A stretch of DNA of 41,890 bases, taken from NCBI GenBank assembly GCA_003221005.1, contig QHTZ01000026.1:1-41890 (forward strand). The letters are read 5' to 3'. The notes beneath the pieces were generated by a model that saw only the letters and a list, made by a program, of their open reading frames with translations, was not told the origin of the DNA and ran no database searches. Source of the DNA: Gemmatimonadota bacterium. GTDB taxonomy: Bacteria > Gemmatimonadota > Gemmatimonadetes > Gemmatimonadales > GWC2-71-9. This document shows, in pieces, positions 1-31,533 of the stretch. Numbering within the stretch: position 1 is the stretch's first letter; each line of letters opens with the position of its first letter. The position numbers were made by a program, and so were the translations under genes.

Positions 1-584
1 TCGCAGGTGTCCTTGGTCACGATGAAGGCGGTGATGCCGTGCGCGCGTTTCGCGGCAGCGTCAGTGCGCGCGGTCGCCACGAAGACCTCTCCCACACCGC
101 CGTGCGTGATGAAGATCTTCGAGCCATTGAGGACGTAGTGGTCGCCCTTCGGGACCGCGGTGGTCTTCGTGCCCCCGGCGTCCGAGCCCGCACCGGCCTC
201 GGTCAATCCAAACCCGCCCAGGACGCGCGCCGTGGCGAGGCGAGGGACGAACGCCCGCCGTTGGGCGTCCGTGCCGAAGTCCATGATCGGCGAGGTGGCG
301 AGCGTGGTGTGGGCGCTGACCGTGATCGCGTGGCTCGCGTCCACCTTGGCGAGCTCGTGGATGACCAGGATGTATGAGAGGTAGTCCATCCCCGAGCCGC
401 CGAGCGGCTTCGGCCAGGGAATGCCGAAGAGCCCGCGCTCGGCCATGCGCTTGACGTTGTCCCACGGGAACTGACTCTCGGCGTCGTAGCGGCGTGCGCT
501 GGGCCGGATGACCTGCTGCGCGAAGTCGCGCACCATGTCACGGACCTGGAAGTGCTGGTCGGTGAAGTAGGGGGAGTCGGGCAT
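1..584 (-). CDS. Acyl-CoA dehydrogenase (short/branched-chain type), 5' part; runs off the window
   Basis: Not in the ORF track; translated by hand from ATG at 584: MPDSPYFTDQHFQVRDMVRDFAQQVIRP...GFGLTEAGAGSDAGG...YVLNGSKIFITHG. Contains the ACAD motifs (LTEPxAGSD-like and NGSKxFIT). Confidence 0.93.
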   Translation of the reverse strand, partial: MPDSPYFTDQHFQVRDMVRDFAQQVIRPSARRYDAESQFPWDNVKRMAERGLFGIPWPKPLGGSGMDYLSYILVIHELAKVDASHAITVSAHTTLATSPIMDFGTDAQRRAFVPRLATARVLGGFGLTEAGAGSDAGGTKTTAVPKGDHYVLNGSKIFITHGGVGEVFVATARTDAAAKRAHGITAFIVTKDTC

Positions 585-597
585 GGGTCGAAACCTA
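585..597 (-). promoter_or_regulatory. Putative -10 box (TAGGTT) 7 nt upstream of ATG; leaderless start
   Basis: Minus strand reads TAGGTT-TCGACCC-ATG with no Shine-Dalgarno; near-identical to the region upstream of tolC. Confidence 0.5.
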
Positions 598-604
598 GTC
601 GCAT

Positions 605-674
605 GACGCCACGACGCCACGCTTCACGAATGTGATCGACGTGGCTCTCGTGGCACGTGGCCTCGTGAAGCGTG
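605..674. repeat. Palindromic short-unit repeat element / possible terminator downstream of ppc
   Basis: Perfect 12-bp inverted repeat CACGCTTCACGA (618-629) / TCGTGAAGCGTG (663-674). Built from tandem GACGCCAC x2 and GCTTCAC, then inverted GTGGC-type units. Confidence 0.75.
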
Positions 675-677
675 CTA

Positions 678-3401
678 CTATCCGGTTGTCCCGAATCCCG
701 CCGCCACGCAGTTGATCGACAGCAGCAGCGGCGCCAGATGGTCCTCCTGCTCCTTGCCGCTCGTGGCGCGGTAGCGGCGCAGCAGCTCGATTTGCTGGCG
801 GTTCACCTGCGCCAGGGTCGGCAGGCGCCGGCCCAGGCGGCGCTGGTACTGCGGGAAGCGCTCGGCAATGGCGCGGCCCCCGCTCAACCGCAGCAGGGCG
901 TCCGCTGTGCGGCGGTACTCCGCCTCGATCAGCGGGAAGATGGCGTCGCGCACGCGAGGGTCGGCTACCAGGCCCGCGTACTCGCGTGCGATATCGAGGT
1001 CCACATACGCCAGCGTCTTTTCGACTTCGTCCACGATCAGCCGGAACAGCCGGGAGTCCTCGAACATGCGCTTGAGGAGCGCCTCGCCCCGCGCGCCGCG
1101 CACCTCGAGGAAGGTGGCGAGCCCGCTGCCGACGCCAAACCAGCCGGGCACGAAGTGACGGTTCTGGGTCCAGGCGAAGACCCAGGGAATGGCGCGCAGG
1201 TCCGCCAGGGTCTTGACTCCGAAGCGACGGGCGGGTCGGGAGCCGATGTTCAGGAGGGCGATTTCCTCGAGCGGGCTCGCCGCCTGGAAGTACGTCACCA
1301 GGTCGGGATGCTCGACCAGGCCGCGGTAGGCGGCGTGGGCGGCGCCGGCGAGTGCCTCGAGTGCCTCATCGAACTCGGACGCCTGTGCGGGGACCGCCTC
1401 CCGCTCCGAGCGGAGCGAGTGCTCCAGCACGCTCGCGGCGAGCAGCTCGATCTGGTAGGCGGCGGTGCCGCGGTTCGCGTACTTGACCGACACCACCTCG
1501 CCCTGCTCGGTGAGCCGCAGGCGGCCCTGGATCGACCCGGCAGGCTGCGCCGCAATGGCGCGCCCGGTCGGGGCGCCGCCGCGGCTCACGGACCCACCGC
1601 GCCCGTGGAAGAACGTGATCGGCACGCCGCATTCCCGGCCGAGCCGCGTGAGCTTCAGCTGCGTCTTCGCGAGCTCCCAGTTCGACGTGAGGTAGCCGCC
1701 GTCCTTGTTGGAGTCCGAGTATCCGATCATCACCTCGTGCGCGCCACCCTGCGCGCGGACGCTGCGTCGGATCAGGGGAACCTGAAGCAGCTCCCGCATG
1801 ATGTCGGGGGCGCGCCGCAGGTCCTCGATCGACTCGAACAGGGGCACGATCGGCAGGGTGCAGCTCTCGATCCCCCCGGCATCGGCGAAGAGGCCGGCCT
1901 CCTTCGCGAGGACGTAGCTGCCCAGCACGTCATCCGCCGAGTGCGTCATGCTCAGGATGAAGGTCCCGATCGCCTCCCGGTCCACCTCGCTGCGGACCTC
2001 CCGGACCAGGCGGAACATGCCCAACGTGTCCCCCGCCTCGCCGGGGAGGTCGGGCGGAACGTGACCCGGCCGCAGCGGGCGCGTGAGTTCGGTTTGAAGC
2101 CAGGCGTGCCAGGGCGCGGATCCGGGGGCCGGCGGCTCCGCACCGTCCGAGCGCGTGCGCCACAGCGTCGCAAGCGCCTCGTTGATGCGCATCGTGTTCT
2201 CGCGCACGTCCAGCCGGAACGTGCTGAACCGGAACACCTCGACTTCCCTGCGCACCGGCCGCACCCGCATCGTCGCGAGCGCATCGCAGTTTGCCTCGCT
2301 CAAGCCGCTCTCCATCACTCGCAGGTCGGCGACCAGGGCGTCGGCTGTGGCATAGCCGCATCCCTCCGGGGCGGGCTGCCCGCGGCCGGCGTACTCGATG
2401 GTCGCGTCGAGGCGGCGCAGCATGCACGCCAGGTATTGCCGGAACACCTCTCCGGGGTTGCGGGCGGCGATGCGCTCGACCTCACCGCTCAGCGCGAGCT
2501 GCCGGTCGAGCGCCTCGCGGAAGGCTGGGGGGATGGCGAGGGTCCGCTCGGTGATACTCAGCGTGCGGACCAGGTCTCCCAGCCGCTGCCGGTAGCGTCG
2601 CAGGCTCGCGAGCCGGTTTTCGTTCAGTGTCTCCCGCGTCACCGCGTTCGTGACGAACGGGTTGCCGTCGCGGTCGCCGCCGATCCACGAGCCGAATTGG
2701 AAGAACGGCGGCACCTCGAATTGCTCGTCCGGGTATGTCTGTCGCAACGCGCGGTCGAGCTTGTCGAGCAGCTCGGGGGCGACGGCGAACAGGTTCTCGT
2801 TGACGAAGTAATGCCCCCAGGCGAGCTCCTGAGCCACGGTCGGCTTCTCGAGCCGGAGCTCGCCCGTCAGCCACAGGATCTCGATGTCGTTGCGCAGCTC
2901 GTCGATCAGATAGCTGCGCTCGCGCGGCGTCCAGCGTGGCTCTTCCAGGTCCATGAGGCGGAGATAGAGGGTACGGTGCCGCTCGAGCACCGTAACACGC
3001 TTGGCCTCGGTGGGGTGCGCGGTGATCACGGGCTCGACGTGGAGGGTCGCGAGAATGGCCCGGACCTCGTCGGGGGAGATCCCGGACGCCGCGGCGCTGC
3101 TCACCACCTGTGCGAACGTGCCCCGGAGCTGCTCGTAGCCCCGCTCGACCTCGGCACGGCGGCGGTCACGCATCACCACGTTCTGCTCCGCGATGCTGAG
3201 GAGCTGGAACCAGATGCCCTGCGCCTGGATCGTCCGCGCCAGGAGCTCCGGGCTCCGGCCCACATCGACTTGCCGCCCGCGCAGCACCGCCTCGATCTCC
3301 GGCTGATGCGCGTGGATCACGTCGAGCAGCAGGCTGAACAGGAGATCGGTGAGGTACTGGGCGTAGTCGGCGCCGAGCGCCGCCACGGGGTCCGCGGTCA
3401 C
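678..3401 (-). CDS. ppc: Phosphoenolpyruvate carboxylase (serine-cycle type)
   Basis: 907 aa with motifs TAHPTE, GGDRDGNP, MIGYSDSNKDGG, FHGRGGSVSRGG and LRAIPWVFAWTQ; GTGA overlap with the upstream gene. Confidence 0.97.
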   Translation of the reverse strand: MTADPVAALGADYAQYLTDLLFSLLLDVIHAHQPEIEAVLRGRQVDVGRSPELLARTIQAQGIWFQLLSIAEQNVVMRDRRRAEVERGYEQLRGTFAQVVSSAAASGISPDEVRAILATLHVEPVITAHPTEAKRVTVLERHRTLYLRLMDLEEPRWTPRERSYLIDELRNDIEILWLTGELRLEKPTVAQELAWGHYFVNENLFAVAPELLDKLDRALRQTYPDEQFEVPPFFQFGSWIGGDRDGNPFVTNAVTRETLNENRLASLRRYRQRLGDLVRTLSITERTLAIPPAFREALDRQLALSGEVERIAARNPGEVFRQYLACMLRRLDATIEYAGRGQPAPEGCGYATADALVADLRVMESGLSEANCDALATMRVRPVRREVEVFRFSTFRLDVRENTMRINEALATLWRTRSDGAEPPAPGSAPWHAWLQTELTRPLRPGHVPPDLPGEAGDTLGMFRLVREVRSEVDREAIGTFILSMTHSADDVLGSYVLAKEAGLFADAGGIESCTLPIVPLFESIEDLRRAPDIMRELLQVPLIRRSVRAQGGAHEVMIGYSDSNKDGGYLTSNWELAKTQLKLTRLGRECGVPITFFHGRGGSVSRGGAPTGRAIAAQPAGSIQGRLRLTEQGEVVSVKYANRGTAAYQIELLAASVLEHSLRSEREAVPAQASEFDEALEALAGAAHAAYRGLVEHPDLVTYFQAASPLEEIALLNIGSRPARRFGVKTLADLRAIPWVFAWTQNRHFVPGWFGVGSGLATFLEVRGARGEALLKRMFEDSRLFRLIVDEVEKTLAYVDLDIAREYAGLVADPRVRDAIFPLIEAEYRRTADALLRLSGGRAIAERFPQYQRRLGRRLPTLAQVNRQQIELLRRYRATSGKEQEDHLAPLLLSINCVAAGFGTTG

Positions 3402-4372
3402 GCGACCCGGTCGCGCGGCGGCGCGCCGGAGAAGAAGGCCTTGAGATTCTCGATGGCCCGCATCCCCATCGCCACCCGCGTCTCCTGCGTGGCGCTGCCC
3501 AGGTGCGGCAGCAGCACCACGTTTTCCATCGTGCGCAGCTCCGGGCTCATGGCCGGCTCGCGCTCGTACACGTCGAGGCCCGCGCCCGCGATGGTGCGCG
3601 CCTTGAGCGCTGCGACGAGCGCCTGCTCGTCCACGACGTCGCCGCGGGCCGTGTTGATGAGAAACGCGCCGGGCTTCATCAGTTTGAGACGCCGCGCGTC
3701 GATCAGATGTCGGGTCTCGGGGGTCGCGGGACAGTGCAGCGATACGAAGTCGGCCTCCCGCACCACGTCGTCGACGCTGGGGCGGGCCGTCGCCCCGAGC
3801 TCGCCCACGACCTCCGGAGGCGGGGGCACGGGATCATGGAACAGCACGCGCATCCCGAAGCCGAGCCGCGCACGTCGCGCCACCGCGCGAGCAATGCGAC
3901 CCATCCCCACGAGCCCCAGCGTCTTCCCGGAGACCTTGGTCCCGAGCAGGTGCGTCGGGCGCCAGCCGGTCCAGGCGCCGGCGCGCACCTGCCGCTCCCC
4001 TTCCCCGGCGCGGCGCGCCACCATCAGCATCAACATGAAGGCGTCGTCCGCCGTGTCCTCGGTGAGCACTTCGGGCGTGTTGGTCACGACCACGCCGCGC
4101 GTCCGCGCCGCGGCGAGGTCGATGTGATTGAAGCCGACGCCGAAGTTGGCGAGGATCCGCGCCTGGAGGGGCTCCACGGCGAGGACCTCGGCACTGATCC
4201 GGTCGGTGACGGTGCACAGCAACCCATCGGCGGTGCGGAGTGCCTGCTGCAGCCCCGCCGCCTCGAGCGGCCGGTCGTCGCGGTTCAGCTGGGCGTCGAA
4301 CTCGCGGGCGAGCTGCTCCTCCACGGCGGCGGGAAGCCGCCGCGTGACGGCGACGCGGGAGCGCCCGCTCAC
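3398..4372 (-). CDS. hprA: D-glycerate dehydrogenase / hydroxypyruvate (glyoxylate) reductase, D-2-hydroxyacid dehydrogenase family
   Basis: Motifs [16 protein letters not shown], Rossmann [20 protein letters not shown] and PHLGSAT; the hpr function is assigned from operon context. Confidence 0.85.
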
Positions 4373-5283
4373 CGCGGGACCATCACCCGCCGGGAGCGCT
4401 TCCTCGCCAGCGCCTCCGCCATCGTCGACCCGAGCTCCGATGGGCTGGGGGCGACGACCAGGCCGGCCGAGCGCATGATCTCGGCCTTCTCGGCCGCCGT
4501 GTCGCCGAACGCGGAGATGATCGCCCCGGCGTGGCCCATGCGGCGTCCCTTGGGAGCCGTGAAACCCGCCACGTAGCCGATCACCGGCTTGGTCATGTGC
4601 TCCTTCACGAACATGGCGGCATCGGCTTCCTGCGGGCCGCCGATCTCGCCGATGATCATCACCGCGTCGGTCTCGGGGTCCTGCTCAAACAACGCCAGGA
4701 TGTCCACGAACGAGCTGCCGTTGATCGGATCGCCACCGATGCCCACGCTCGTCGTCTGCCCGATCCCGAGCGCCGCCATCTGCGCCGCCGCCTCGTAGCC
4801 CAGCGTGCCGGAGCGGGTGACCACGCCGACCGGTCCCGGGACGTAGATGTGGCCTGGCATGATGCCCATCATCGCCTTCCCGACGCTGATCACGCCGGCG
4901 CCGTTCGGGCCGACCATACGGGTGCGGCGCTCCTTGGGGTAGCGCCACAGGTAGCGTTTCACGGTCATCATGTCCTGGGCGGGTACGCCGTCCGTGATCG
5001 TGACCACGAGTCGGATGCCGGCGTCGGCGGCTTCCATGATGGCGTCGGCGCAGAACGGCGCGGGTACGAGGATGAGGCTGGCGGTGGCGCCGGTCGCCGC
5101 GACGGCTTCCTTGACGGTGTTGAAGACCGGCTTCCCAAGGTGGGTCGTCTCGCCTTTGCCGGGGGTTACTCCGCCGACGACGTTGGTGCCGTAGGCGATC
5201 ATCTCCTTCGCATGGAAGGTGCCTTTGTCCCCCGTGAAGCCCTGGATGATGACGCGGGTGCGCTCGTCGAGCAGGATGCTCAC
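4369..5283 (-). CDS. mtkB: Malate--CoA ligase (malate thiokinase) small subunit, SucD-like
   Basis: True start is GTG at 5283 ([18 protein letters not shown]...), overlapping the mtkA stop. Motifs [21 protein letters not shown] and phospho-His MGHAGA. Context with mcl/sga favours Mtk over SucD. Confidence 0.88.
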
Positions 5284-6329
5284 GCCGCCCTCGCTGCGTT
5301 GCGCGCCGCCACCACGCGTTCCGCCGCCTCCGCGAGCGTCTCCGCCGTAAGGATCGGCAGACCACTGTCCCGGAGGATTCGCCGCCCCTCCTCCACGTTG
5401 GTTCCCGCGAGCCGCACCACCAGGGGCACCGGCATCTGCACGTCGCGCACCGCCTGGACCACGCCCTCGGCGACCCAATCGCAGCGGTTGATGCCAGCGA
5501 AGACATTCACGAGGATCGCCCTGACCTTCGTGTCCGACAGGACGATTCGAAAAGCGACCGCCACGCGGTCAGGTGATGCTCCCCCTCCGATGTCGAGGAA
5601 GTTGGCCGGCTCGCCCCCTGCGTGCTTGATCATGTCCATCGTCGCCATCGCCAAGCCCGCTCCGTTGATGATGCAGCCGATGTCGCCGTCGAGCGCCACG
5701 TAGCTCAGCCCGTGCTCAGCGGCCTCGGCTTCCCGCGGATCCTCCTGCGCGTAGTCGCGCAGCTCCGCCACATTGGGTCGCCGGAACAGGGCGTTGTCGT
5801 CGAAGCTCATCTTCGCGTCGAGGACGAGCATCTGACCATCTTTGGTGAGCACGAGCGGGTTCATCTCGACCATGGTTGCGTCGAGCTCGCGAAACGCGCG
5901 GTAGGCCCCGAGAATCACGGCAATGGCCTGGCTGACCTGGGCGCCGGGCAGCCCCAAGCCGAACGCGAGCTCGCGCGCCTGGAACGGCTGCATCCCCACC
6001 GCGGGCTCCACCACCTCGCGCAGAATCGCCTCGGGCTCCCGCTGGGCGATCTCTTCGATCTCGATGCCGCCGTGGGGATGGGCCACGACCACGATCCGCT
6101 CCCGTTTGCGGTCGAGCACGAGTCCCACGTACAGCTCGCGGTCGACCGGCACGGCCTGCTCGATTAGCACCCGGTGCACCGGCAGCCCTTCCGGACCAGT
6201 CTGGTCGGTCACCAGGGTCTTGCCGAGCAGGTCCTTGGCGCCCTGGCGAACCTCAGCGTCGCTGGCGCAGTCCTTGATGCCACCGAAGCCGGCGAGGAGC
6301 TCCTTCGCCTGGTACTCGTGGATGTCCAT
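5280..6329 (-). CDS. mtkA: Malate--CoA ligase large subunit, SucC-like, with an apparent in-frame internal deletion of about 40 aa
   Basis: [12 protein letters not shown]..., [23 protein letters not shown] and [15 protein letters not shown] (MtkA-like). Only 349 aa; the family's VVKAQ..GxRGKAG segment is absent between LAGFG and GIKDC. Confidence 0.85.
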
Positions 6330-6333
6330 GGCG

Positions 6334-7302
6334 TCAGGCCCGCGCGTCGGCGAGCGACGGCGCGCGCTTCGCGTCGATGGCGGCGGCGATCTGCACGACG
6401 TTGCGGGCCAGGCGCGCCGACGCCGCGTCGATCATGCGGCCCTCGAGCTGGGCGGCGCCGCGGCCTTCGCGCGCCGCGTCATCCAACGCCCGCAGAATCC
6501 GCTGGGCGCGCTCGATCTCCCCCGCCGGCGGGGTGAACACGTCGTTCGCGGGGGCGATCTGGGACGGATGGATCGCCCACTTTCCCTCGTAGCCGAGCGC
6601 GGCGGCGCGGCGCGCGGCGGCGAGGAACCCGTCGGGATCCTTGAAGTCGCCGTAGGGCCCGTCAATGGGTCGCAAGCCGTAGGCGCGGCACGCGGTCACC
6701 ATGCGGGACAGCGCGGCGTGCCACTGATCGCCGGGATAGTCGGGGTTGAGCCCGCCGATGCTCACTGTGCGGGCGCGCAGGCTGGCCGCCAGGTCGGCGA
6801 CGCCGAAGTGCATCGCTTCGAGGCGCGGGCTCGCGTGGGCAATCGCCTCGACGTTCGCCATGCCGAGCGCGGTCTCGATCAGCACCTCGATGCCGAGCCG
6901 GTGCGTGATCCCGCGCGCGGCTTCAATCTGCGTGAGCAGCGCGTCGGTGAGGTAGACGTCGCCGGGCGTGCCGACCTTGGGAACGAGCAGCGTGTCGAGC
7001 CGGTGGCCCGCTTGCTCGACGACGTCCACCACGTCGCGATAGAAGTAGTGGGTGTCGATGCCGTTGACGCGCACCGAGATGGTTTTGCCGCGCTCGCGCC
7101 AGTCGTGCTCCAGCAGCCCTGCGATCACGTTGCGGCGCGCCTGCTCCTTGTCGGCAGGGGCAACCGCATCCTCGAGGTCCAGGAAGACGTAGTCCGCTTC
7201 GCTCTCGAGCGCCTTGCGGAACAGCGTGGCCTGAGACCCCGGCACCGCCAGCTCGCTGCGCTGCAGCCGGGGACGGGCTGGCTCGTAGCGCGTCAGGCTC
7301 AC
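6334..7302 (-). CDS. mcl: Malyl-CoA lyase (CitE/HpcH family CoA-ester lyase)
   Basis: Start is GTG at 7302, overlapping the sga stop. [42 protein letters not shown] and [13 protein letters not shown] closely resemble MclA/Mcl1. Confidence 0.88.
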
Positions 7303-8546
7303 GTCGCGACTTTGGCGCGGGAGGGCTTGGCGCCGGCGGCTGGCTGCTGGGCGTCGGGGGACGGCCGCGCGGCCAGGGGCGCGGCGGTGCTGCGGTAGGA
7401 CTCCTCGGCGGCCGCCACGCCCGCTCCGGGTGTGACCTGAATGCCGGCGTCTCGCAGCGCCATCTCCGTGCCCGCGAGCGCCCCGAGGAGCATCAGCTCG
7501 TTCAGGTCTCCCATATGGCCGATGCGGAACAGCTTCCCCGCCATGCGCCCGAGCCCCGCGCCGAGCGCGAGGTTGTAGCGCCGGAACGCGACGTCGATCA
7601 CGTCCCCGGCGCTCGTCCCCTCGGGCGCCATGATGGCGCTGACCGTGTTGGAATACCACTTGGGCGCCTTGGCGCACAATTTGAGGCCCCAGGCGCGCAC
7701 CGCTGCCCGCACCCCCTCCCCCAGGCGCTGGTGCCTGGCGAACACGTTCTCGAGCCCCTCCTCGAACAGCATGTCGAGCGACTCGCGCAAGCCGTGGAGC
7801 ATCAGCACCGCGGGCGTGTAGGGGAAGTAGCCGGTCGCGTTCGACTTGATCATTTCGCCCAGGTCGAAGAACGCGCGCGTGCACTTGGCCTGCTCCCGCG
7901 CGGCGAGGGCGCGCGGGCTGGCGCATAGGATCCCGAGCCCGGCCGGCAGCATCAACCCCTTTTGCGACCCGCTGATCGCGAGGTCCACGTTCCACTCGTC
8001 CATCCGGAAGTCGATGCTCGCGATCGCGCTCACCCCGTCCACGTAGAGCAGTGCGGGGTGGCGGGCCGCGTCGACGGCACGGCGCACCGCGGCGACATCA
8101 CTCGTCACGCCGGTCGCCGTTTCGTTGTGGACGATCAGCACGCCTTTGATCTCATGCTGGCGGTCGGCTGTGAGGATCTCCTCGATCCGGTCGGGGGGCG
8201 CCCCCTCCCCCCACTCCACCTCCAGCACGTCCACCCGCAGGCCGTGGCGCTGCGCGAGCTCGATCCAGAGGTGACCGAATTGGCCATAGCGTGGGGCGAG
8301 CACCCGGTCGCCCGGAGACAGGGTGTTCACGAGTGCCGCCTCCCAGGCGCCGGTCCCGCTGGCAGGGAAGATGAACGCCTGGCCCGCGCTGGTCTTGAAC
8401 AGCTTGTTGAGGTCCCGGAACAGGCCGGTCGGCAGTTCCGGGAACGCCGAGGAGCGGTGATCCTCCATCGCGCGATGCATCGCGCGCAGGATCCGGTCCG
8501 GAACGTTCGTCGGACCAGGTACGAACAGGAAGTTGCGGCCGGCCAT
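7299..8546 (-). CDS. sga: Serine--glyoxylate aminotransferase (class V PLP enzyme)
   Basis: ATG at 8546: MAGRNFLFVPGPTNVPDRILRAM; VHNETATGV, PLP-lysine motif SGSQKGLMLP, FPYTP and FRIGHMG. Confidence 0.93.
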   Translation of the reverse strand: MAGRNFLFVPGPTNVPDRILRAMHRAMEDHRSSAFPELPTGLFRDLNKLFKTSAGQAFIFPASGTGAWEAALVNTLSPGDRVLAPRYGQFGHLWIELAQRHGLRVDVLEVEWGEGAPPDRIEEILTADRQHEIKGVLIVHNETATGVTSDVAAVRRAVDAARHPALLYVDGVSAIASIDFRMDEWNVDLAISGSQKGLMLPAGLGILCASPRALAAREQAKCTRAFFDLGEMIKSNATGYFPYTPAVLMLHGLRESLDMLFEEGLENVFARHQRLGEGVRAAVRAWGLKLCAKAPKWYSNTVSAIMAPEGTSAGDVIDVAFRRYNLALGAGLGRMAGKLFRIGHMGDLNELMLLGALAGTEMALRDAGIQVTPGAGVAAAEESYRSTAAPLAARPSPDAQQPAAGAKPSRAKVAT

Positions 8547-8647
8547 ACTCTTGGTCCTTGGAAGTGGCAGAAAAAATGAAGCGAGAATCTGTATATTGGG
8601 CCTCCCCGGCACCTGACGCCAGCCCCTTGCATCCCAGGGCGTTGCGG

Positions 8648-9823
8648 TCAGGCCTCACGTGGCAAGCCGCACCGGTCACATCCGTTGCAGCGCTCCCCGA
8701 CCTCGCCGAAGTGGTTGAGCAGGGCGCGCCGCCGGCACTGGCGGCCTGCGACGTAGCGTCGCATGGCGGGGTCGCAGTCGGTCTGCTCGAAGTCTGCGGG
8801 CGTCCAGAGGATCACGCACGCCGCGCGCGCCCCGTCCCGGCCCGCGCGGCCGGCCTCCTGGTAGTATGCCTCGAGCGTGCGGGCCGGCCCCCAGTGGATC
8901 ACTCGGCGTACGTCGGGCTTGTCGATGCCCATGCCGAAGGCGCTGGTCGCGACCACGACAGGGATGCGGTCCCGCAGGAAATCGCGCAGCACCTTGCGGC
9001 GCATCTCGGGCGGGAGCCCAGCGTGATAGGGCGCCGCCAGCGTTCCGGCACGCAGCAGGGCGCGGGTGACAAGCTCGGTGAGCCGTCGCGTCGGGGTGTA
9101 AACGACCGAGTACCCCGGTCCGCGCGGTACTAGCCGCCGCAGGCGAGCGAACCGCTCGCGGTCGTCGCGGACGCGTTCGACCGCGAACGTCAGGTTCGGC
9201 CGGTCGAACGACGTGACCACCACCTCCGCGCCCGGCATGCGCAACACCTCGATGATTTCCGCCTGTGCGGCAGGGGTGGCACTCCCTGTGACCGCGAGGG
9301 TCACGGGCTGCCCGAGCTGATAGCGGTACTGGCCGAGGCGGCGATATACCGGCCGAAATTCGTTGCCCCATTCGACGATGCAGTGCGCTTCGTCCACCGC
9401 GAGGAGCGAGACCGGGATCAGAGCTGCGCGCAGCGCTGGCACGAGCCGGGCAAGGCGCTCGGGGGCGCAGTATAACAGGCCCACTCGCCGGGCCTGGACC
9501 GCGGCCAGCACCGTGCGGCGGTCGTCGGGACTCAACAGGCTGCTCAAGTACGCTGCTGGCAGCCCGCGGCGGCGGAGGGCGCCGACCTGGTCCTGCATCA
9601 GCGCGATGAGGGGTGAGATCACGAGCGTCATGCCCTCGGTCATGAGGGCGGGAAGCTGGTAGCAGAGCGACTTCCCCGCGCCGGTAGGCAAGACAGCGAG
9701 CACGCTCCGTCCCGCGAGCAAGGGGCCGAGCACCTTCACCTGGTGCACGTGCAGCCGCTCGTGCCCGAAGTGACGCCGCATCAGCTCGCGCGCGCGCGCC
9801 AGCCCGCCCCGAAAGACCGACAC
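8648..9823 (-). CDS. recQ: RecQ-family ATP-dependent DNA helicase, short form without winged-helix/HRDC; start uncertain
   Basis: Motifs PTGAGKS, DEAH, AFGMGIDKPDVR, YYQEAGRAGRDG and C-terminal Zn site CRR...CNGCDRC. Confidence 0.9.
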   Translation of the reverse strand: MSVFRGGLARARELMRRHFGHERLHVHQVKVLGPLLAGRSVLAVLPTGAGKSLCYQLPALMTEGMTLVISPLIALMQDQVGALRRRGLPAAYLSSLLSPDDRRTVLAAVQARRVGLLYCAPERLARLVPALRAALIPVSLLAVDEAHCIVEWGNEFRPVYRRLGQYRYQLGQPVTLAVTGSATPAAQAEIIEVLRMPGAEVVVTSFDRPNLTFAVERVRDDRERFARLRRLVPRGPGYSVVYTPTRRLTELVTRALLRAGTLAAPYHAGLPPEMRRKVLRDFLRDRIPVVVATSAFGMGIDKPDVRRVIHWGPARTLEAYYQEAGRAGRDGARAACVILWTPADFEQTDCDPAMRRYVAGRQCRRRALLNHFGEVGERCNGCDRCGLPREA

Positions 9824-9836
9824 GGGCAGAAATGAG

Positions 9837-9867
9837 AATGGGCTCCGGAGCAATTCCGGAGCCCATT
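9837..9867. terminator. Hairpin, probable terminator of the 9901-10218 gene
   Basis: 13-bp perfect inverted repeat AATGGGCTCCGGA / TCCGGAGCCCATT, followed by a T-rich stretch on the minus strand. Confidence 0.6.
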
Positions 9868-9900
9868 TCGCGCCGCCTGGTCCATTCTATCGCGCGGGAG

Positions 9901-10218
9901 TTACCCCCGATCTGCCCAGTTCACCGCGTAGCTGTTTCCACACTCGGGGCACTTCGCCTCTTTCGGCTGTCCCGACACGTGGTGGCGCTTGTGACACCCC
10001 GGGCACACGAGGTGCGGCTCATGCACGACGCTCCACGTTGTCGGAGGCTCACGCCGAACCTCGAGGTCGTCCTTGGGAATGCGGACCTCGACGTTGTGCA
10101 CGTCCACGACGACCCACGGCTTCCCACTGTCCTCCACGACGCGGTACCACGCTCCGCGGCGCAGGCCGTCCTTCTCCGCGCGATCCCCGCGACTGCGGGC
10201 CCATCCAGGAGCCGCCAT
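9901..10218 (-). CDS. Hypothetical protein with a C-terminal Zn-ribbon (CPGC...CPEC)
   Basis: 105 aa with protein-like composition, a beta-rich N-terminal half (LRRGAWYRVV) and two CxxC pairs. Confidence 0.8.
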   Translation of the reverse strand: MAAPGWARSRGDRAEKDGLRRGAWYRVVEDSGKPWVVVDVHNVEVRIPKDDLEVRREPPTTWSVVHEPHLVCPGCHKRHHVSGQPKEAKCPECGNSYAVNWADRG

Positions 10219-10262
10219 GGCGCTAAGGATGCACGTCCCCTGGGACGTGCGCCAGAGCCCGC

Positions 10263-10637
10263 CTACTCACTCGCCGTGCCCTCGCGTACGAGGACGAGGA
10301 TCGCCGCCTGTGGCACCACCAGGTAAGTCTTTTGTCCGAATGTGATTTCCACTGCGGCCTTCCGAAAGAACAGAGCATAGTCACCCACTTCCGCCTGCAT
10401 CGGCAAATAGCGCACTTCGGGAGCGTGGATCTTCCACGGCTCCTCGTCCATGCTCGCCGGCTCGGAGATGGGGTTGCCGGGACCTGTGGCGACGATGCGT
10501 CCGCCCTGCACCTGGCGGCTTTCGAGCGCCGTGGCGGGAAGGTAGAGCCCGACGTTCGTCCGCTCTTCGCCCTGCTCCGGGGAGATCAGGACGCGGTCGC
10601 CCACGACGATCAGACGTTTAGGGGTCTCTTCCGGCAT
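10263..10637 (-). CDS. Orphan GroES/Cpn10-like co-chaperonin
   Basis: ATG at 10637: ...VVGDRVLI..EERTNVGLYLP...GRIVATGPG...VGDYALF...TYLVVPQAAIL. No groEL is adjacent. Confidence 0.85.
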   Translation of the reverse strand: MPEETPKRLIVVGDRVLISPEQGEERTNVGLYLPATALESRQVQGGRIVATGPGNPISEPASMDEEPWKIHAPEVRYLPMQAEVGDYALFFRKAAVEITFGQKTYLVVPQAAILVLVREGTASE

Positions 10638-10711
10638 GCCAATGAGTACCGCCGTTCGGCGCGTTTGCGCAAGTCGTAACGTCGGCGTGATCGGCGTCAC
10701 GCGGCGAATGC

Positions 10712-10740
10712 TTGACAGGGCGGGAAGGCTCACTATCAAT
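10712..10740 (+). promoter_or_regulatory. Possible sigma70 promoter of the membrane protein/vWA pair
   Basis: TTGACA (10712-10717), 16 nt spacer, then TATCAA(T); GAGGAGG SD-like sequence before ATG 10814. Confidence 0.45.
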
Positions 10741-10813
10741 GAGCGTCGCCGCAGTGCGCCCCCCGCCCCGCGGCCGTGATGCTTCGTCCCACCTCCGAGG
10801 AGGGAACCGCCAC

Positions 10814-11951
10814 ATGCAAGCTCCTGTAGCCGCTGTTCAGACCGCGCAGTGGAGCTGGATCCTCTCGACGCTCTGGAGCTGGATCTGGGCCGGGCTGGCG
10901 TGGATCGTCGAATGGCAGGCGAGAGTCTTCGGGATGATCTTGGGCGTCGACTCCTTCTGGGGCGTTGTGGGAGTCGTGGTGCTCTTGTTCCTGCCCGCGG
11001 CGACGCTGGTGGCCGGCGTGTGGGGGACGATGGTGTCCCTCTACACCATCCCGTTTCGGCTGGGGCGGGCGGGCTTGCTCCTTACGTCGCTGTTGATGTC
11101 GTGGTGGGACGCGGTTCGCATGACCTGGTTCTACTGGTCCGGCCTCGTGCGGTTCGTCGTGGTGTTCTTGGGCTGGGTGTGGGGGCTTCTGAAGCTCACG
11201 GTCGAGCTCGTGTGGGGGACCTTGAAGGGGGCCGTCACGTCGCCGCTCGCCATGCTCGACGCGACCGCGCGCCGGCCCGGCGTGCCGTGGGCGGCGTTCT
11301 TCCTTCTGATATTCTGGTCCGCGATCGAAGCCACGATCTTCACGTTCACGCTGCGCCCCACCATGAGCGAGCTGCTGGCGGACCTCACCGGCTACGAGGT
11401 GAATCCGGTCTTCCTCGTGCTCATCCTATGGGTCTTTCTGTGGGTGCTGATCGCGGGCAGCTTCGCGTGCATCCAGGTGCTGAACGATGCCATCAAGACC
11501 CGGCAGGTGGGGCAGATCGCTCGCGCAGCAGGGCGTGCAGCTCGGCGTGTTCGGGACGATCGGCCTTGCGTTCTTCGGCTGGATCGGTGTCCGCGGCATG
11601 ACGTGGTTCTTGTTCGGCCGCTTCGGTGCGCCCGCGCTGATCGGGCTCCTGGGGCGGCAGGCGTTCGCGCAGGCGCATGGTGCCGGAGGCGCGGCCGGCC
11701 CGGCGCCCAACCTCGACTTCTGGCAGGGGCCGATCAAGGCGCTCAAGGCGGAGCGCGAGTGGTTCAACAAGCAGGTGCGCGAGGGGTGGGAGCTGCTGTT
11801 GCTCCCGATCCTCCAGCTGATCGCAGCCGGGTTCAACTTCGGCTTCGTGATCTTCATCGGCCGGCCGCACTTTGCTTTGCCGTTCCACTCGATCGAGGAC
11901 GTGCTCGCGAGCACGCCGTTCGCGGGCAAGGCGACGGAAGGAGGCCACTGA
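10814..11951 (+). CDS. Uncharacterised Trp-rich multi-pass membrane protein, interrupted by a frameshift/deletion near 11519
   Basis: Hydrophobic frame MQAPVAA...IKTRQVGQI continues in another frame as LAQQGVQLGVFGTIGLAFFGW...ATEGGH*; TGATG overlap with the next gene. Confidence 0.75.
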
Positions 11952-12709
11952 TGCGCCGGCCGATCGCAGGCACCGTCGCGCTGGCGCTCGCCCTCGCGGC
12001 GTGCAGCCCTCCCAAGAACGCGCCCCCACCCAACTCAACGCTCGTGGTGGGGATCGACGTGAGTGGCTCGTTCCGCCACACCCCGCAGTTCAACGAGTCG
12101 ATCGATTTCGCGGCCCTCTACATCTACGGCCACTTGAACGGCATCGGCGGGCTGCGTCCCTACACAGCGATATTTGTGGGCGAGCTCGGCGGCGTGCGTC
12201 CGGGTCAACCCAAGGTGTTTCACCCGATCCAGGATCTCACCGGGAAGTCGCCCGCGCAGATCGCGGCGGACATCAGGGCGTGGTTCCCCCAGACCGATCC
12301 GATCACCGACTTCAACGCGTTTTTCCAGCGGGCCGCGGTGCACGTGCGGCGCAACAACCTGATCCTGGCACCGCTGAACATCGTGCTGTTCTCGGATGGC
12401 GAGCCTGATTACCCGGGCGCCGGCCGCCTGTCCCCCGAAGCACGCTACGAGCGGGTGGACTTGAGCCCCCTTGAATTCCTGTCTCGCAATGTGACCGTGC
12501 GCTTACTCTACGCCGACCCGCCGATCGCCCAGCTATGGGAGCGCCGGGTGCCGCGCAAGCGTGTCCGTATCTGGACGCAGGATTCGGAGGTGATGAAGGG
12601 TTGGCGCCGCCACGTGCGCGAGGGCGTGCCGATGGAGCGGCAGGATTCGCTCTGGTCGTGGGTGGACAAGATCGTGGACGTGCGGGTGCGGCGGGGGAAA
12701 CTCCTCTAG
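11951..12709 (+). CDS. Lipoprotein with a vWA-like domain
   Basis: MRRPIAGTVALALALAAC lipobox; MIDAS-like VVGIDVSGS...TD...VLFSDGEPD; 252 aa. Confidence 0.8.
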   Translation: MRRPIAGTVALALALAACSPPKNAPPPNSTLVVGIDVSGSFRHTPQFNESIDFAALYIYGHLNGIGGLRPYTAIFVGELGGVRPGQPKVFHPIQDLTGKSPAQIAADIRAWFPQTDPITDFNAFFQRAAVHVRRNNLILAPLNIVLFSDGEPDYPGAGRLSPEARYERVDLSPLEFLSRNVTVRLLYADPPIAQLWERRVPRKRVRIWTQDSEVMKGWRRHVREGVPMERQDSLWSWVDKIVDVRVRRGKLL

Positions 12710-12788: not shown

Positions 12789-13226
12789 TTATGTGCAGTA
12801 GCGATCGAACGCGGCAGTCAGGTCCGCCGCGATGTCTTGGGCCGGGCGTCCTTCGATGTTCTTCCGCTCCAGCATGAACACCAGCTTCCGGCCCTGGAAT
12901 AGCCCCATTTGCGGGGACGAGGGCGGGTAGCCCGTGAAGTAGCTGCGCGCTCGCGCTGTGGCATCGGCGTCCTGACCGGCAAACACCGTGAGGAGCCGGG
13001 CCGGGCGCTTCGCGTGCTGGACCGCGATCGTGACCGCCGGACGCGCGTTCCGCGCCGCGCAGCCGCACACGGAGTTCACTACCACCAGCGTGGTCTCGGT
13101 CTCGGCGCCGAGCGCGTCGTCCACTTGGACGGGAGTGCGGAGTTCCTGGAATCCGATGCGCGTCAGCTCCTCGCGCATCGGCTGCACCAACCGAGGGTCG
13201 TACATCGGAACGTTGAGATTAGTCAT
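12789..13226 (-). CDS. BrxA/BrxB family bacilliredoxin
   Basis: VQPMREELT...VVNSVCGCAA (CGC motif), TVFAGQD and PPSSP. Confidence 0.93.
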   Translation of the reverse strand: MTNLNVPMYDPRLVQPMREELTRIGFQELRTPVQVDDALGAETETTLVVVNSVCGCAARNARPAVTIAVQHAKRPARLLTVFAGQDADATARARSYFTGYPPSSPQMGLFQGRKLVFMLERKNIEGRPAQDIAADLTAAFDRYCT

Positions 13227-13251
13227 GGCAGAATAATAACGACGCAGGGCT

Positions 13252-13269
13252 TGTCAGGTTCCTGACAGG
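13252..13269. promoter_or_regulatory. Putative OmpR/CusR-family response-regulator box in the divergent brx/tolC promoter
   Basis: TGTCAGG-TT-CCTGACA palindrome, also readable as the direct repeat TGTCAGG/TGACAGG with 11-bp period, lying just upstream of a TAGGTT -10 box (13279-13284). Confidence 0.6.
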
Positions 13270-13291
13270 TACGCCGCGTAGGTTTCGCCCG

Positions 13292-14488
13292 ATGCATCGT
13301 TCCCTGGTCATCGTCTCACTGTGCGCCGTCGCGGCCGTGAGCGTCATGTCCGCTCAGCAGCCGGTGACCCGCGCTGACGCCGTCGCCACGGCGCTCGCCC
13401 GCGGTGCACGCGCCGCTCTCGGCCGTGCCGACACCGCGGTTGCCGCGGCGGTGCTGCATGGGGCGAGGGCGTATCCCAACCCCTCGATCTCCGCGAGCTA
13501 CACGCAGGATGTCCCGCACCACCACGTCGCTGCCGCGCTGTCGCTCGATCTGCCCTGGTTGCGATCGGCGCGTGTGGGCGCCGCGGCGGCCGCGCGGGAG
13601 GCTGCCGTGTATGGCTTCGCGCTCGAGCGCGCCTCCATTCGGTTCGAGGTCGACACGACCTACACCCAGGCGCTCGCGGCGCTCGCGCATGCGCGCCTGT
13701 CGCGCCGCAACGCCCTCGACGCCGACAGCCTGCTCGCGATGGCGCGGCTGCGGCGCGAAGTGGGGGATGTCAGCGATCTCGATGTGCGGCTCGCCGAGGT
13801 GAACGCAGGCCAGCTCGAGAACACTGCTGCGGACGATTCGCTTGCGGCGATCGGGGCGCTGCTCGCCGTGCAGCTCGCGATGGGGCTCTCGGGGGAGCAA
13901 CCGGCAATCACCCTGGTCGACTCGCTCACCCCGCCCCGTGACACCGTGTCCAGCCCGGTCGCTGAGCCGCTTCCGGTCCTCGCCGCGGCGGCGAGTCTGC
14001 GCTCCGAGGAGCGCGCACTCAGCCTCGCCAGCCGCAGCATTTTCGCGACGCCGAGCCTCGAGCTGGGCGTGGATCAGGGCGACCCCACGGGACCGGGTGG
14101 CTTGCTGCCCTTCATCGGGCTGTCGCTGCCGCTTCCGCTGTTCAACTGGAATGGCGGCGAGGTCGCCCGCGCGCGCGCGACGCGCGACCGCGCGCAGGCC
14201 AACCTCGACCTGGTGCGGCGCGAGAGCGCCGCCGAGGCGGCGGGCACGCGGCGGCGGTTTGCAGCGTCGCTTGCGAGGGTCGCGCGCGATCAGCTCCTGC
14301 TCGCGGGCGCCGACCGCGTCGCGGGGATGGCGCTCCAGGCGTACGCGGAAGGCGCGGTCCCGCTCGCCAACGTTCTCGAGGCCCAGCGGAACGCGCGTGA
14401 GGCCCTGGGGCGCTACATCGAGGACGTGCGAGCGGCGAACAACGCCGCGGCGACCGTGCGGCTGCTGACCGCGTCGCCACAGCAGTGA
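13292..14488 (+). CDS. TolC-family outer-membrane efflux protein
   Basis: Signal peptide; YPNPSIS, G(D)VSDLDV, LPLPLFNWNGG and AYAEGAVPLANVLEAQR are typical outer-membrane efflux repeats. Confidence 0.88.
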   Translation: MHRSLVIVSLCAVAAVSVMSAQQPVTRADAVATALARGARAALGRADTAVAAAVLHGARAYPNPSISASYTQDVPHHHVAAALSLDLPWLRSARVGAAAAAREAAVYGFALERASIRFEVDTTYTQALAALAHARLSRRNALDADSLLAMARLRREVGDVSDLDVRLAEVNAGQLENTAADDSLAAIGALLAVQLAMGLSGEQPAITLVDSLTPPRDTVSSPVAEPLPVLAAAASLRSEERALSLASRSIFATPSLELGVDQGDPTGPGGLLPFIGLSLPLPLFNWNGGEVARARATRDRAQANLDLVRRESAAEAAGTRRRFAASLARVARDQLLLAGADRVAGMALQAYAEGAVPLANVLEAQRNAREALGRYIEDVRAANNAAATVRLLTASPQQ

Positions 14489-15546
14489 GACCAACCTTCG
14501 CGTTCTCCGTTGCGGCGGCCGCGTGTGTGCTGTTGGGATGCCACCGGGGGCATGGGGGCGAGGGCGAGGTGGCCTCCGGGCAGCAGGCCGTGGTGGGGGC
14601 GGGCACGGCGGTCGCCGTGATCCAGGCGTTCCCGCAGAGCGTGCGGGCGATCGGCACCGTGACGCCGCGCCCCGGGGGGTACGCCGATCTGGCGGCGCCC
14701 GCTCCGACGAGGGTGGCGCACATCTTCGTGGCGCCGGGCGACCGGGTCGCGGAGGGGGACGCGCTGGTCGAGTTCGAGCGTGCGCCGTTCGACGCCGCCG
14801 CAAAAAGCGCAGACGCGGCGCTGGCGAGCGCCCGGCACGCCTACGCCCGCGCCGTCCGCTTGGTGGAGGCGGGAATTCTCCCGCAGAAGGATTCCGACCA
14901 GGCGGCGGCGGATCTCGCCCAGGCTCAGGTGGCGTCGGTGACGGCGCAGCGATCCCAGCAGCTCGCGACGCTGCGCGCACCGCTCGCCGGTGTCGTCACC
15001 CGGATGAACGCGGTGCTCGGCGCGTCCGTGGACCCCGGCCAGCCGCTCGTGGAAGTCGCGGATCCCAGGGCCCTGGACATCGTGTTCAACGTGTCCCCGA
15101 CCGAGGCGGCCGGCATTCGTACGGGGGACACTGTCCACGTCCGCGCCGGCGAAGGCGCCGGCGCCGAGAACCTGGGGGCGGGAGTCGTGACCGCGGTCGG
15201 TGCGGCCGTGGACTCGGTCTCGCGCGCCGTCGCGGTCCGTGCGCGCCTTCCCCGGGCCGCGCGAGCGCTGCGCATCGGCGAGTCGGTGTTCGGCCGGATC
15301 GTGACCGCCGTCCACCCCCAGGCTGTGGTCGTGCCGGTCGAGGCGCTGGTGCCGACGGGCGGCGGCGACGGCTACCAGGTGTTCGTGGTGGACTCGGAGG
15401 GCGTTGCCCACGCACGACCGGTGACGCCGGGTGCGCGCGGAGAGACGTTGGTGGAGATCGCGCGTGGCCTCACCTCCGGCGAGACGGTAGTGACGACGGG
15501 CGCCTACGGCGTTGCGGAGGGCGCGCGGATCGTTCGGCCGCGATGA
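14485..15546 (+). CDS. RND efflux periplasmic adaptor (membrane fusion protein), lipoprotein
   Basis: Lipobox LLGC; lipoyl-like PGDRVAEGDALV...LRAPLAGVV; C-terminal GLTSGETVVTTG. Confidence 0.9.
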   Translation: MRPTFAFSVAAAACVLLGCHRGHGGEGEVASGQQAVVGAGTAVAVIQAFPQSVRAIGTVTPRPGGYADLAAPAPTRVAHIFVAPGDRVAEGDALVEFERAPFDAAAKSADAALASARHAYARAVRLVEAGILPQKDSDQAAADLAQAQVASVTAQRSQQLATLRAPLAGVVTRMNAVLGASVDPGQPLVEVADPRALDIVFNVSPTEAAGIRTGDTVHVRAGEGAGAENLGAGVVTAVGAAVDSVSRAVAVRARLPRAARALRIGESVFGRIVTAVHPQAVVVPVEALVPTGGGDGYQVFVVDSEGVAHARPVTPGARGETLVEIARGLTSGETVVTTGAYGVAEGARIVRPR

Positions 15547-18500: not shown

Positions 18501-18608
18501 GCCGTGATCGGTGGCCTGACGCTGTCCACCCCCATCACGTTGTTCGCCGTCCCCATTCTGCTCGTCGCGATTCGCGGCCCGGGCTACGCGCTCCCCGACG
18601 GGACCTGA
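15543..18608 (+). CDS. RND efflux permease (AcrB/CzcA/CusA superfamily)
   Basis: True start is ATG at 15543 (ATGA overlap), 1021 aa; motifs GLVIDDAVVVTEN, FLPEMDEG, GLIVKNGIIL and RLRPILMTT. Confidence 0.95.
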   Translation: MKLFDVLSRQRRLIYLVVAVLSAAGVWATLRLPSAIYPELEFSRITVVAQGSTLGARQVVFSITRPLEEAVSIVPGVTRVRSHSIRGAVEMQITFAPRTDMAYALQLVRARVNQIQGDLPAGLDIEVERLAPSLFPILSYNLEGGDPATLYDIARYEIKPLISRVPGVGRVDVMGSDVREIEVIADPARLAQQDLTYTDLADAIRRAVTVQAVGRVAQDYRQYLIVTDQEAHSADDVGAVVVKGGLRVRDLATVRLGTEDHVRIVAGDGRPAAILNITRQLGGNTLAIADSVARIAAALAPGFPPGVHLKPVYDQAALVRDAVTAVRDAMLVGATLAVIVLLLFLRHGLITAISATSIPLTLAITMFVMSVLGQSFNLMTLGAMAIAIGLVIDDAVVVTENIARHMALSAARTPAIREAVQELIWPVTTSTITTVVVFLPLGLLQGVVGQFFAALATTLTVAVLVSLGLALSIIPLLAAQFVTASEVQVVAAGPLARVQRALDQLGPRYERALAAVLHHRGRVAGAAFILVVAGLGLWRLVATGFLPEMDEGAFVLDYWTPGSTALDETNRQVGIAERILAETPEIAGTSRRTGAELGLFATAQNTGDVVARLVPRSRRTRDIFAVMDDVRDRISAAAPRLRIEFVQILSDVVNDLAGNPRPVEIKVFGEQLDTLEAYARRIAPELERIEGLEDLYDGVSEPSAELLMRVNQAEADRVGMAPADVGAAVSAALLGVNAGEVRAEDRPVAVRVRAPDSVRFDPLRLRSLPLLRPGAPRATPLGSLATFAAAESRMNLERENQQQMIAITGDLSGRSLGGVMADVRRVLAAHAPPPGVRVALGGQYASQQDAFRALLLVLGLAAVSVCAVMVVQFESFVEPLVVLLVAPLSFVGALFVLLVTGTALNVSSLMGLILLVGLIVKNGIILLDFTRLRMREARVPLETAIREAARVRLRPILMTTLCTLFGLLPLALGIGTGSELQRPLALAVIGGLTLSTPITLFAVPILLVAIRGPGYALPDGT

Positions 18609-18634
18609 CTGATTCCCCAGCCGCTCGACCCGGC

Positions 18635-19660: not shown

Positions 19661-19670
19661 GGCGGGTCCT

Positions 19671-21482: not shown

Positions 21483-21501
21483 AGGCGACGCTCCGCTGCG
21501 G

Positions 21502-30053: not shown

Positions 30054-30065
30054 AGGAGACGGGGG

Positions 30066-31531: not shown

Positions 31532-31533
31532 GC

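Follow-up and report, generated by a model that had tools for sequence, protein, structure and literature searches.

The window analyzed here is a whole contig of 41,890 nucleotides (QHTZ01000026.1 of GenBank assembly GCA_003221005.1, contig C119 of the genome designated G000 below) from a bacterium of the phylum Gemmatimonadota. On its minus strand, from position 8546 to 678, it carries the six co-oriented genes sga-mcl-mtkA-mtkB-hpr-ppc, which constitute the standard serine-cycle operon of one family of the order Gemmatimonadales. Our overall reading, which we consider probable, combines three features: (i) the operon is the one usual for Gemmatimonadales, (ii) G000 is devoid of the modules that feed it with one-carbon (C1) units, and (iii) a gap within mtkA is more likely an artefact than a mutation. 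An earlier note on the same DNA, made from the sequence alone, was right about the enzymes and the phylum; the operon is not novel, and methylotrophy by the usual route appears not to be encoded in G000.

The arrangement of the six genes described in that note was reproduced in all coordinates and junctions. Stop and start codons overlap as GTGA at the sga/mcl, mtkA/mtkB, mtkB/hpr and hpr/ppc junctions, and a 4-nt gap (TGA CGCC ATG) separates mcl from mtkA; the overlaps suggest translational coupling of the operon genes. No Rfam family matched at its gathering score anywhere in the window, and a promoter and terminator scan of positions 1-10800 revealed no promoter-like site and one terminator-like hairpin, located upstream of recQ, shuffled sequences giving more of them.

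Family assignments were made by Pfam and NCBIfam profile searches, in which bit scores were compared with the curated cut-offs. The sga product (7299..8546, 415 aa, Aminotran_5) is 61-70% identical to the sga products of Methylobacterium and 81% to those of congeners, and was assigned as a putative serine--glyoxylate aminotransferase. The mcl gene (6334..7302, 322 aa) has a GTG start that overlaps the sga stop; its product matches HpcH_HpaI with 133.8 bits and is 60-63% identical to the products of mcl genes adjoining ppc in Methylobacterium loci and 84-85% to those of Gemmatimonadales loci. Although no bacterial Mcl model of NCBIfam reached its cut-off with this protein, the fold together with the identity to Methylobacterium supports its assignment as a predicted malyl-CoA lyase. 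For mtkB (4369..5283, 304 aa, CoA_binding and Ligase_CoA), the SucD-type model NF004230 scores 422.9 bits against a cut-off of 336; this alpha subunit of malate--CoA ligase is intact and is 86-90% identical to congeners and 71-77% to Methylobacterium-type mtkB products. The beta subunit encoded by mtkA (5280..6329) has 349 aa instead of the expected ~391 and scores 583.5 bits with NF010647, the match covering only profile positions 58-389; it falls below the cut-off of 604 because residues 16-57 are missing, and the congener proteins, with 686-696 bits, exceed the malate--CoA ligase cut-off. The ppc product (678..3401, 907 aa) obtained 751 bits with NF000584 against a cut-off of 815, and was assigned as a predicted phosphoenolpyruvate (PEP) carboxylase by its 785.6-bit match to PF00311.

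The least specific assignment is that of hpr (3398..4372, 324 aa), a D-2-hydroxyacid dehydrogenase (2-Hacid_dh_C, 214 bits) and putative hydroxypyruvate/glyoxylate reductase. It scores below every NCBIfam cut-off, the best match being glyoxylate reductase with 309 bits against 455, and is only 32-35% identical to HprA of Methylobacterium, while its identity to the hpr products in the same operon slot of proteobacterial loci is 55-61%. We infer its substrate from the operon context and its role from the conserved operon position. As a whole, the earlier view of the six genes as the serine-cycle enzyme set is supported. One correction concerns mtkA, whose 42-residue shortfall (profile positions ~16-57, in frame) had gone unnoticed.

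The reactions of the operon enzymes are those of the established serine cycle. Sga would transfer the amino group of serine to glyoxylate, yielding hydroxypyruvate and glycine, and Hpr would convert hydroxypyruvate to glycerate, to be phosphorylated by a GlxK-type kinase encoded outside the operon. Ppc would convert PEP to oxaloacetate, which is then presumably reduced to malate; MtkAB would form malyl-CoA from malate at the expense of ATP, and Mcl would split it into glyoxylate and acetyl-CoA. GlyA, or serine hydroxymethyltransferase, would close the cycle by forming serine from glycine and methylene-tetrahydrofolate (methylene-H4F), and isocitrate lyase might regenerate glyoxylate. The earlier note, confined to the window, had proposed to look elsewhere for glyA, glycerate kinase and ccr or icl. 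A genome search located glyA on contig C75 (566 bits), a GlxK-type glycerate kinase on C15 (Gly_kinase, 326 bits) and isocitrate lyase on C84, as two stretches of one 493-aa frame. The MOFRL-type 2-kinase had no match in G000. Crotonyl-CoA carboxylase/reductase (Ccr) had none over the cut-off in this genome, and the ethylmalonyl-CoA pathway was rejected as the glyoxylate route on this ground. Thus, serine hydroxymethyltransferase, glycerate kinase and a predicted route for glyoxylate regeneration via isocitrate lyase are encoded in G000 outside the operon. Within the genus, the glyoxylate shunt is variable: 5/7 genomes have isocitrate lyase and 2/7 (G000 and G402) malate synthase, and G139 is devoid of both.

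In a comparison across the phylum, MtkA exceeds the curated cut-off in 69 of the 401 sampled genomes, 61 of them in the family of the window and 8 in a second family of the order, with none among the 141 genomes elsewhere; the sample includes three unpublished genomes, G057 (MtkA-positive), G097 and G157 (both negative). All seven genomes of the window's genus have MtkA. The closest loci in a collection of species-representative genomes belong to metagenome-assembled genomes (MAGs) of Gemmatimonadales (L015, L016, L017 and L019), and these four, which are the loci with enough flanking sequence, have the six genes in the same order; in a fifth Gemmatimonadales locus, L064, the operon is interrupted by the contig end.

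The gene order was earlier thought to set this operon apart from those of Proteobacteria; this did not hold, since the identical order was found in five proteobacterial loci, from Gammaproteobacteria MAGs (L020, L032 and L035), Mesorhizobium kowhaii (L033) and a Chromatiales MAG (L050). These operons share with the window the order of genes and the type of hpr, with the 55-61% identity given above, and differ from it in phylum, in overall identity (48-72%) and in the position of their MtkA, which is not immediately next to the Gemmatimonadota clade in the MtkA tree. The Methylobacterium clusters (L022, L023 and L027) are orthologous in sga (61-70%), mtkA (61-63%), mtkB (71-74%), ppc (61%) and mcl (60%); however, their order is sga-hprA-(gap)-mtkA-mtkB-ppc-mcl, the gap being filled, as we assume, by mtdA and fch, and their hpr encodes a different 2-hydroxyacid dehydrogenase, 32-35% identical to the window Hpr. 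The Nitrosomonas loci among those compared contain the three-gene cassette mcl-mtkA-mtkB, whereas the window operon also keeps sga, hpr and ppc.

A quick maximum-likelihood tree was built from 91 MtkA and SucC rows with gap columns excluded; 5 of the 95 loci (L056, L064, L070, L073 and L109) were left out because their matches were short or interrupted. The 19 Gemmatimonadota rows cluster in a single group with a support of 90 in the Shimodaira-Hasegawa-like approximate likelihood ratio test (SH-aLRT). In this tree, the group is sister (SH-aLRT 99) to a Methylobacterium/Methyloceanibacter/Methylibium clade and is nested among Pseudomonadota. The nesting and the identical proteobacterial gene order point to an old horizontal exchange, to which no direction was assigned, rather than to independent invention.

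The C1-feeding modules that usually occur beside this operon are missing from G000. Searches of the genome gave no match to Fae and Mch, both of which occur in 5/7 genomes of the genus, to pqqC, likewise present in 5/7, or to FTHFS and hence FtfL, found in 4/7 (Fch and FolD were outside this search). Mpt_N also had no match in G000, but the control of that search was silent too. Glutathione-dependent formaldehyde dehydrogenase was found in none of the seven genomes of the genus. Alignment with the congener G034 revealed how these genes are missing: (i) a 7.6-kb cluster with a 705-bit XoxF is lacking inside contig C100 of G000, the flanks being joined at 5310/5321; (ii) an 11.1-kb tetrahydromethanopterin (H4MPT) island is lacking inside the same contig, with the flanks joined at 861/882; (iii) a 5-kb cluster of genes for pyrroloquinoline quinone (PQQ) synthesis, pqq, is lacking inside contig C70, with the junction at 36016-36151; and (iv) at the ftfL site, contigs C59 and C36 overlap by exactly 55 bases across one continuous open reading frame (ORF), with ftfL missing. 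Thus, the absences of the XoxF cluster, H4MPT island, ftfL and pqq cluster are clean indels relative to G034, and not assembly holes. In G034 (contig C19, ~34.0-61.0 kb, loci L122, L119 and L120), the XoxF cluster and the H4MPT island flank a 4.4-kb block that G000 has kept. The two are separate clean indels and not one.

To place G000 among its relatives, the presence of Fae was cross-tabulated by hand against that of MtkA in the same 401 genomes, of which related ones are not independent, so that the counts stand as such, with no statistical test. The 74 carriers of MtkA-type proteins comprise the 69 over the cut-off, four genomes with hits at contig ends, and G000. Fae was found in 70 of these 74 carriers vs 13 of the 327 non-carriers, the four carriers devoid of it being G000, G139, G347 and G111. 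Hence, in this phylum the operon normally accompanies H4MPT-linked methylotrophy, and G000 is a rare exception. In most carriers it would act alongside XoxF, PQQ, H4MPT and FtfL and serve methanol assimilation, as published. Given the clean indels at all four modules (XoxF cluster, H4MPT island, ftfL and pqq), methanol assimilation by the usual route is predicted not to be encoded there, and the operon could not be fed from methanol in that way. The earlier note had seen in it a possible true assimilatory methylotrophy module, a view that these indels do not support for G000. The same note held that a genome without C1 oxidation, glyA and glycerate kinase would point to another role; the C1 modules are indeed missing, while glyA and the kinase are present.

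The third feature, the gap in mtkA, has its junction at positions 6283..6286 (minus strand), between codons F15 and G16. In a DNA alignment with G034, G139 and L015, the window lacks exactly 126 columns, the two ends having no more than GG in common; in the protein alignment this corresponds to 42 columns, residues 16-57. The 120 best MtkA homologues all have at least 388 aa and none has the gap, and in all six other genomes of the genus MtkA matches the profile from position 1 to 389 or 390. One candidate for a second N-terminally short MtkA, that of G296, was rejected, its match being cut by a contig end. The G000 assembly contains neither a second mtkA nor a stray 42-residue segment; the only other SucC-like gene is a separate sucC on C106, 44% identical to MtkA.

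The likely consequence for the protein was judged by comparison with succinyl-CoA synthetase, SucCD (PDB 6mgg, 1jkj and 1cqi). This enzyme is a paralogue of malate--CoA ligase, the G000 sucC product being only 44% identical to MtkA; nevertheless, the fold and subunit layout are the same, residues 1-383 of full-length MtkA align with SucC 1-384 without N-terminal gaps, and the missing residues 16-57 map one-to-one onto residues 16-57 of the solved SucC chains. The ATP-grasp lysine and glycine-rich loop presumably fall within this segment, too. A literature search for Lys46 yielded no paper with that residue in succinyl-CoA synthetase. The passages of PMC2440562 on nucleotide binding place the site in the N-terminal domain of SucC and name residues 20 and 42 as lying in it or on its rim. 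Translated with the gap, the MtkA protein would most likely be inactive.

Several comparable gaps were observed on the same contig. The aspS gene (40002-41890, minus) is split into two ORFs by a 64-bp frameshifting gap at 41126/41127 relative to G034, and positions 190-244 of the NCBIfam profile for aspartyl-tRNA synthetase (AspRS) are covered by neither ORF. It is the only AspRS gene in G000, as the other candidate, on C19, scores as an asparaginyl-tRNA synthetase (538.7 bits against a cut-off of 414); the aspS gap is thus most likely an assembly error. An 82-bp gap at ~38565-38589 divides a 7TM-HD (PgpH-like) gene at 36946-39035 (minus) into two frames; in G034 this gene is a single ORF of 722 aa, whose residues 159-180 lack an equivalent in the window. 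In a baeRF-family (release-factor-like) ORF at 30497-31531 (minus), an 81-bp, 27-residue in-frame gap is located at ~31169-31177 relative to G034. Over 173 kb compared between the two genomes, clean gaps of 60-130 bp numbered five in G000 and one in G034. Public contigs from soil, assembled from three DNA runs and one RNA run, were also aligned to positions 600-8700 of the window. None among the pieces listed bridges the mtkA junction at 6284/6285, the DNA pieces beginning at 6299 and the RNA piece ending at 6268; the break of the DNA pieces at 6299 reflects strain divergence upstream of the start codon, and not the deletion. Because the same contig has 64-, 82- and 81-bp gaps, one of which breaks the only aspS, we favor an assembly error over a real deletion in mtkA, with fair but far from complete confidence.

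The most serious alternative is that the deletion is real and the operon is decaying, i.e. that with the loss of the C1 modules selection on the serine cycle ceased and malate thiokinase was inactivated. The uniqueness of the deletion among 120 homologues and six congeners would fit such a scenario, as would the position of the lost residues 16-57 in the SucC-like N-terminal domain to which PMC2440562, in the passages mentioned, assigns nucleotide binding. The coincidence of the gap with clean losses of four modules of linked function and the lack of a second mtkA, the 44%-identical SucC-like gene aside, fit as well. Nevertheless, three more short gaps occur on the contig, and no living cell could carry its only aspS in broken form. 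Outside the gap mtkA is intact, as are its five operon neighbors, and none of the six evolves faster than in congeners, the branch length of the window MtkA being 0.12 vs 0.09-0.12. Moreover, G139 has the same module losses and yet an intact mtkA. On this balance, we regard decay as rather unlikely and keep to the reading of an artefactual gap in a standard operon.

Two uses of the operon in G000 are conceivable: either it runs on C1 units from serine or glycine, interconverting glyoxylate, glycine and serine with C2, C3 and C4 compounds, or it is a leftover. The congener G139, which is ~100% complete, has no Fae, Mch or FtfL, and retains a full-length mtkA in an intact operon, leans the choice towards a retained function. 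Together with G000 and two others it makes up the 4/74 operon carriers of the sample without Fae. Extended to the order, the suggestion would be that a minority of Gemmatimonadales keep the intact operon after losing the main XoxF, H4MPT and FtfL modules (in G000 PQQ synthesis as well) and employ it for a methanol-independent job; we propose this tentatively, as a possibility that is on balance doubtful. If true, the operon might produce acetyl-CoA and C3/C4 units from glycine, serine and glyoxylate, or glyoxylate and glycine from malate, and methylotrophy would be a strain-level accessory trait within one genus. A serine-cycle operon alone is an unsafe marker of methylotrophy, because within this one genus the modules for C1 oxidation and transfer are present or missing as clean islands, whereas the operon is retained. 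This is of some consequence, as the part that Gemmatimonadota, a phylum abundant in soil, play in methanol turnover has been inferred almost wholly from MAGs. Likewise, verdicts of a complete or broken pathway drawn from the G000 assembly are unsafe for single genes, because the assembly has several internal gaps of 60-130 bp, one of them in the essential aspS.

A number of observations weigh against our reading of a standard operon that lacks its feeding modules and carries an artefactual gap. The mtkA gap is in frame, and the regions compared first, with 38 orthologue pairs, contained no other gap of at least 10 aa. G000 is only 93.9% complete, and gcvT, present in all six congeners, falls at a contig end in G000 and so cannot be scored as absent, the only GCV_T-family match being a weak paralogue of 76 bits. 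The differences in C1 modules are presence or absence within the genus, and may reflect gain as well as loss. G000 has its own malate synthase and does not require the operon to replace this enzyme; a role of this kind, which we had considered, is weakened accordingly. Finally, a second XoxF-like PQQ dehydrogenase on C121 exceeds the family cut-off (TIGR03075, 608 bits); it contains two vicinal Cys residues and a D-Y-D motif, the latter of which we take to be of the lanthanide type. With scavenged PQQ and spontaneous condensation of formaldehyde with H4F, some methanol carbon could enter the serine cycle.

The last of these points leads to the alternative that G000 is a working assimilatory methylotroph, depending on the remaining XoxF-like enzyme and the serine cycle. 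Beside the dehydrogenase itself, the presence of glyA, glycerate kinase and isocitrate lyase and the methylotroph-like appearance of most operon carriers in the phylum are in its favor. A soil metatranscriptome contig identical to mtkA over 6056-6268 adds weakly to this, as DNA can occur in RNA libraries. However, the retained enzyme is an orthologue of the second copy in G034 (612 bits), and not of the 705-bit copy by the H4MPT island; pqqC was not found, and the pqq cluster is cleanly missing. Fae, Mch and FtfL are likewise lacking in G000, as is Mpt_N in the search whose control was silent, and no glutathione-dependent formaldehyde dehydrogenase was detected in the genus. Thus, of the xoxF, pqq and ftfL genes that the earlier note had suggested to look for, only the second XoxF-like enzyme was recovered, while pqqC, FtfL and the 705-bit XoxF cluster were not. 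We consider this alternative improbable.

Still less probable, to the point that we set it aside, is that sga in fact encodes BhcA, which would make the cluster one for glyoxylate assimilation by the beta-hydroxyaspartate pathway. Among the NCBIfam models, BhcA indeed matches the sga product best, but the 591.5 bits remain below the cut-off of 650, and the neighbors in the operon are mcl, mtkAB, hpr and ppc and not other bhc genes (bhcB, bhcC and bhcD were sought in the operon only). As a control, the serine-cycle Sga proteins of Methylobacterium were scored on the same model; because they obtained 541-582 bits there too, the match does not discriminate and is no argument against Sga. The BhcA identity was rejected on the basis of this control and the sub-cut-off score.

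The host is a soil member of Gemmatimonadales, not of Proteobacteria, and the contig, which is collinear over its whole length with a genome of the same genus, is no chimera. From base 7 to 41890 the window follows contig C4 of G034, except for one 8.3-kb island at 13226-21527. The G000 genome comprises 2.79 Mb in 141 contigs with a GC content of 69%, and that of the window is even at 67-73% along its length. Those of the 120 best MtkA homologues that bear an organism name come from MAGs of Gemmatimonadales or Gemmatimonadetes; a close homologue, at 76% identity, comes from Gemmatimonadetes bacterium 13_1_20CM_69_28. The assignment to Gemmatimonadota in the earlier note is confirmed by the closest Gemmatimonadales loci, which have the same operon with recQ and acyl-CoA dehydrogenase flanks, and the chimera it had allowed for is contradicted by the 41.9 kb of collinearity. 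A chimeric contig or proteobacterial contamination of a Gemmatimonadota bin could be argued from the nesting of Gemmatimonadota MtkA within proteobacterial MtkA, sister to the Methylobacterium-type clade, but is hardly conceivable given the collinearity of the contig, the operon and flanks common to named Gemmatimonadales MAGs, the single group of 19 Gemmatimonadota MtkA rows, a contamination estimate of only 0.35% and the even GC content, and it was rejected.

The serine pathway itself has been on record in soil Gemmatimonadetes since 2016, from MAG, proteome and stable isotope probing (SIP) papers, judging by their passages on this group, and the novelty earlier attributed to its occurrence in the phylum does not hold. 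The relevant passages of Butterfield et al. (PMC5103831) describe soil Gemmatimonadetes genomes with XoxF, the H4MPT pathway and a tetrahydrofolate-to-serine pathway including the malate branch, and state that Gemmatimonadetes, unlike Rokubacteria, contain the malate-intermediated serine pathway with glycerate kinase. According to parts of PMC10875860, most XoxF-bearing MAGs, including those of Gemmatimonadetes, have the entire serine pathway, and passages of PMC9258066 report that 13C-methanol RNA-SIP labels Gemmatimonadetes. As far as described in these passages of PMC5103831 and PMC10875860, the soil Gemmatimonadetes MAGs share with G000 the phylum, the enzyme set with the malate branch and the GlxK-type glycerate kinase. 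In contrast to G000, those of PMC5103831 are described with XoxF, PQQ synthesis and a full H4MPT pathway, of all of which G000 has only the second XoxF-like enzyme.

The operon is flanked by conserved genes. Upstream, a recQ-family helicase gene (8648..9853, minus; TIGR00614, 359 bits) occupies the same place in L015 and G034. Downstream, the N-terminal part of an acyl-CoA dehydrogenase (3..620, minus; Acyl-CoA_dh_N and _M) runs off the contig, and this gene is found at the same position in L015, L016, G034 and G139. The terminator-like hairpin mentioned above (9837-9867, minus) has a 13-bp stem and coincides with the TTG annotated as start codon of the recQ-family ORF; translation of recQ probably begins at a site further downstream. 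A 665-aa open frame at 10712-12709 (plus) has no Pfam match, its N-terminal half being membrane-like and its middle rich in Arg and Ala; it may represent two genes or be partly non-coding.

The 8.3-kb block at 13226-21527 is an accessory island that is not found in the otherwise collinear G034. It encodes an outer-membrane efflux protein, an AcrB-type RND pump fused in one long frame (1361 aa), a histidine kinase and a response regulator of the OmpR type, and also contains a beta-propeller-like ORF. The region 23194-34175 (minus) holds an acyl-CoA cluster with genes for enoyl-CoA hydratase, AtuA and a ferredoxin-like partner, a carboxyltransferase, the large subunit of a methylmalonyl-CoA-mutase-family enzyme, and MeaB. 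In the latter gene, 33 extra residues near 33402-33504 are present that are lacking in G034.

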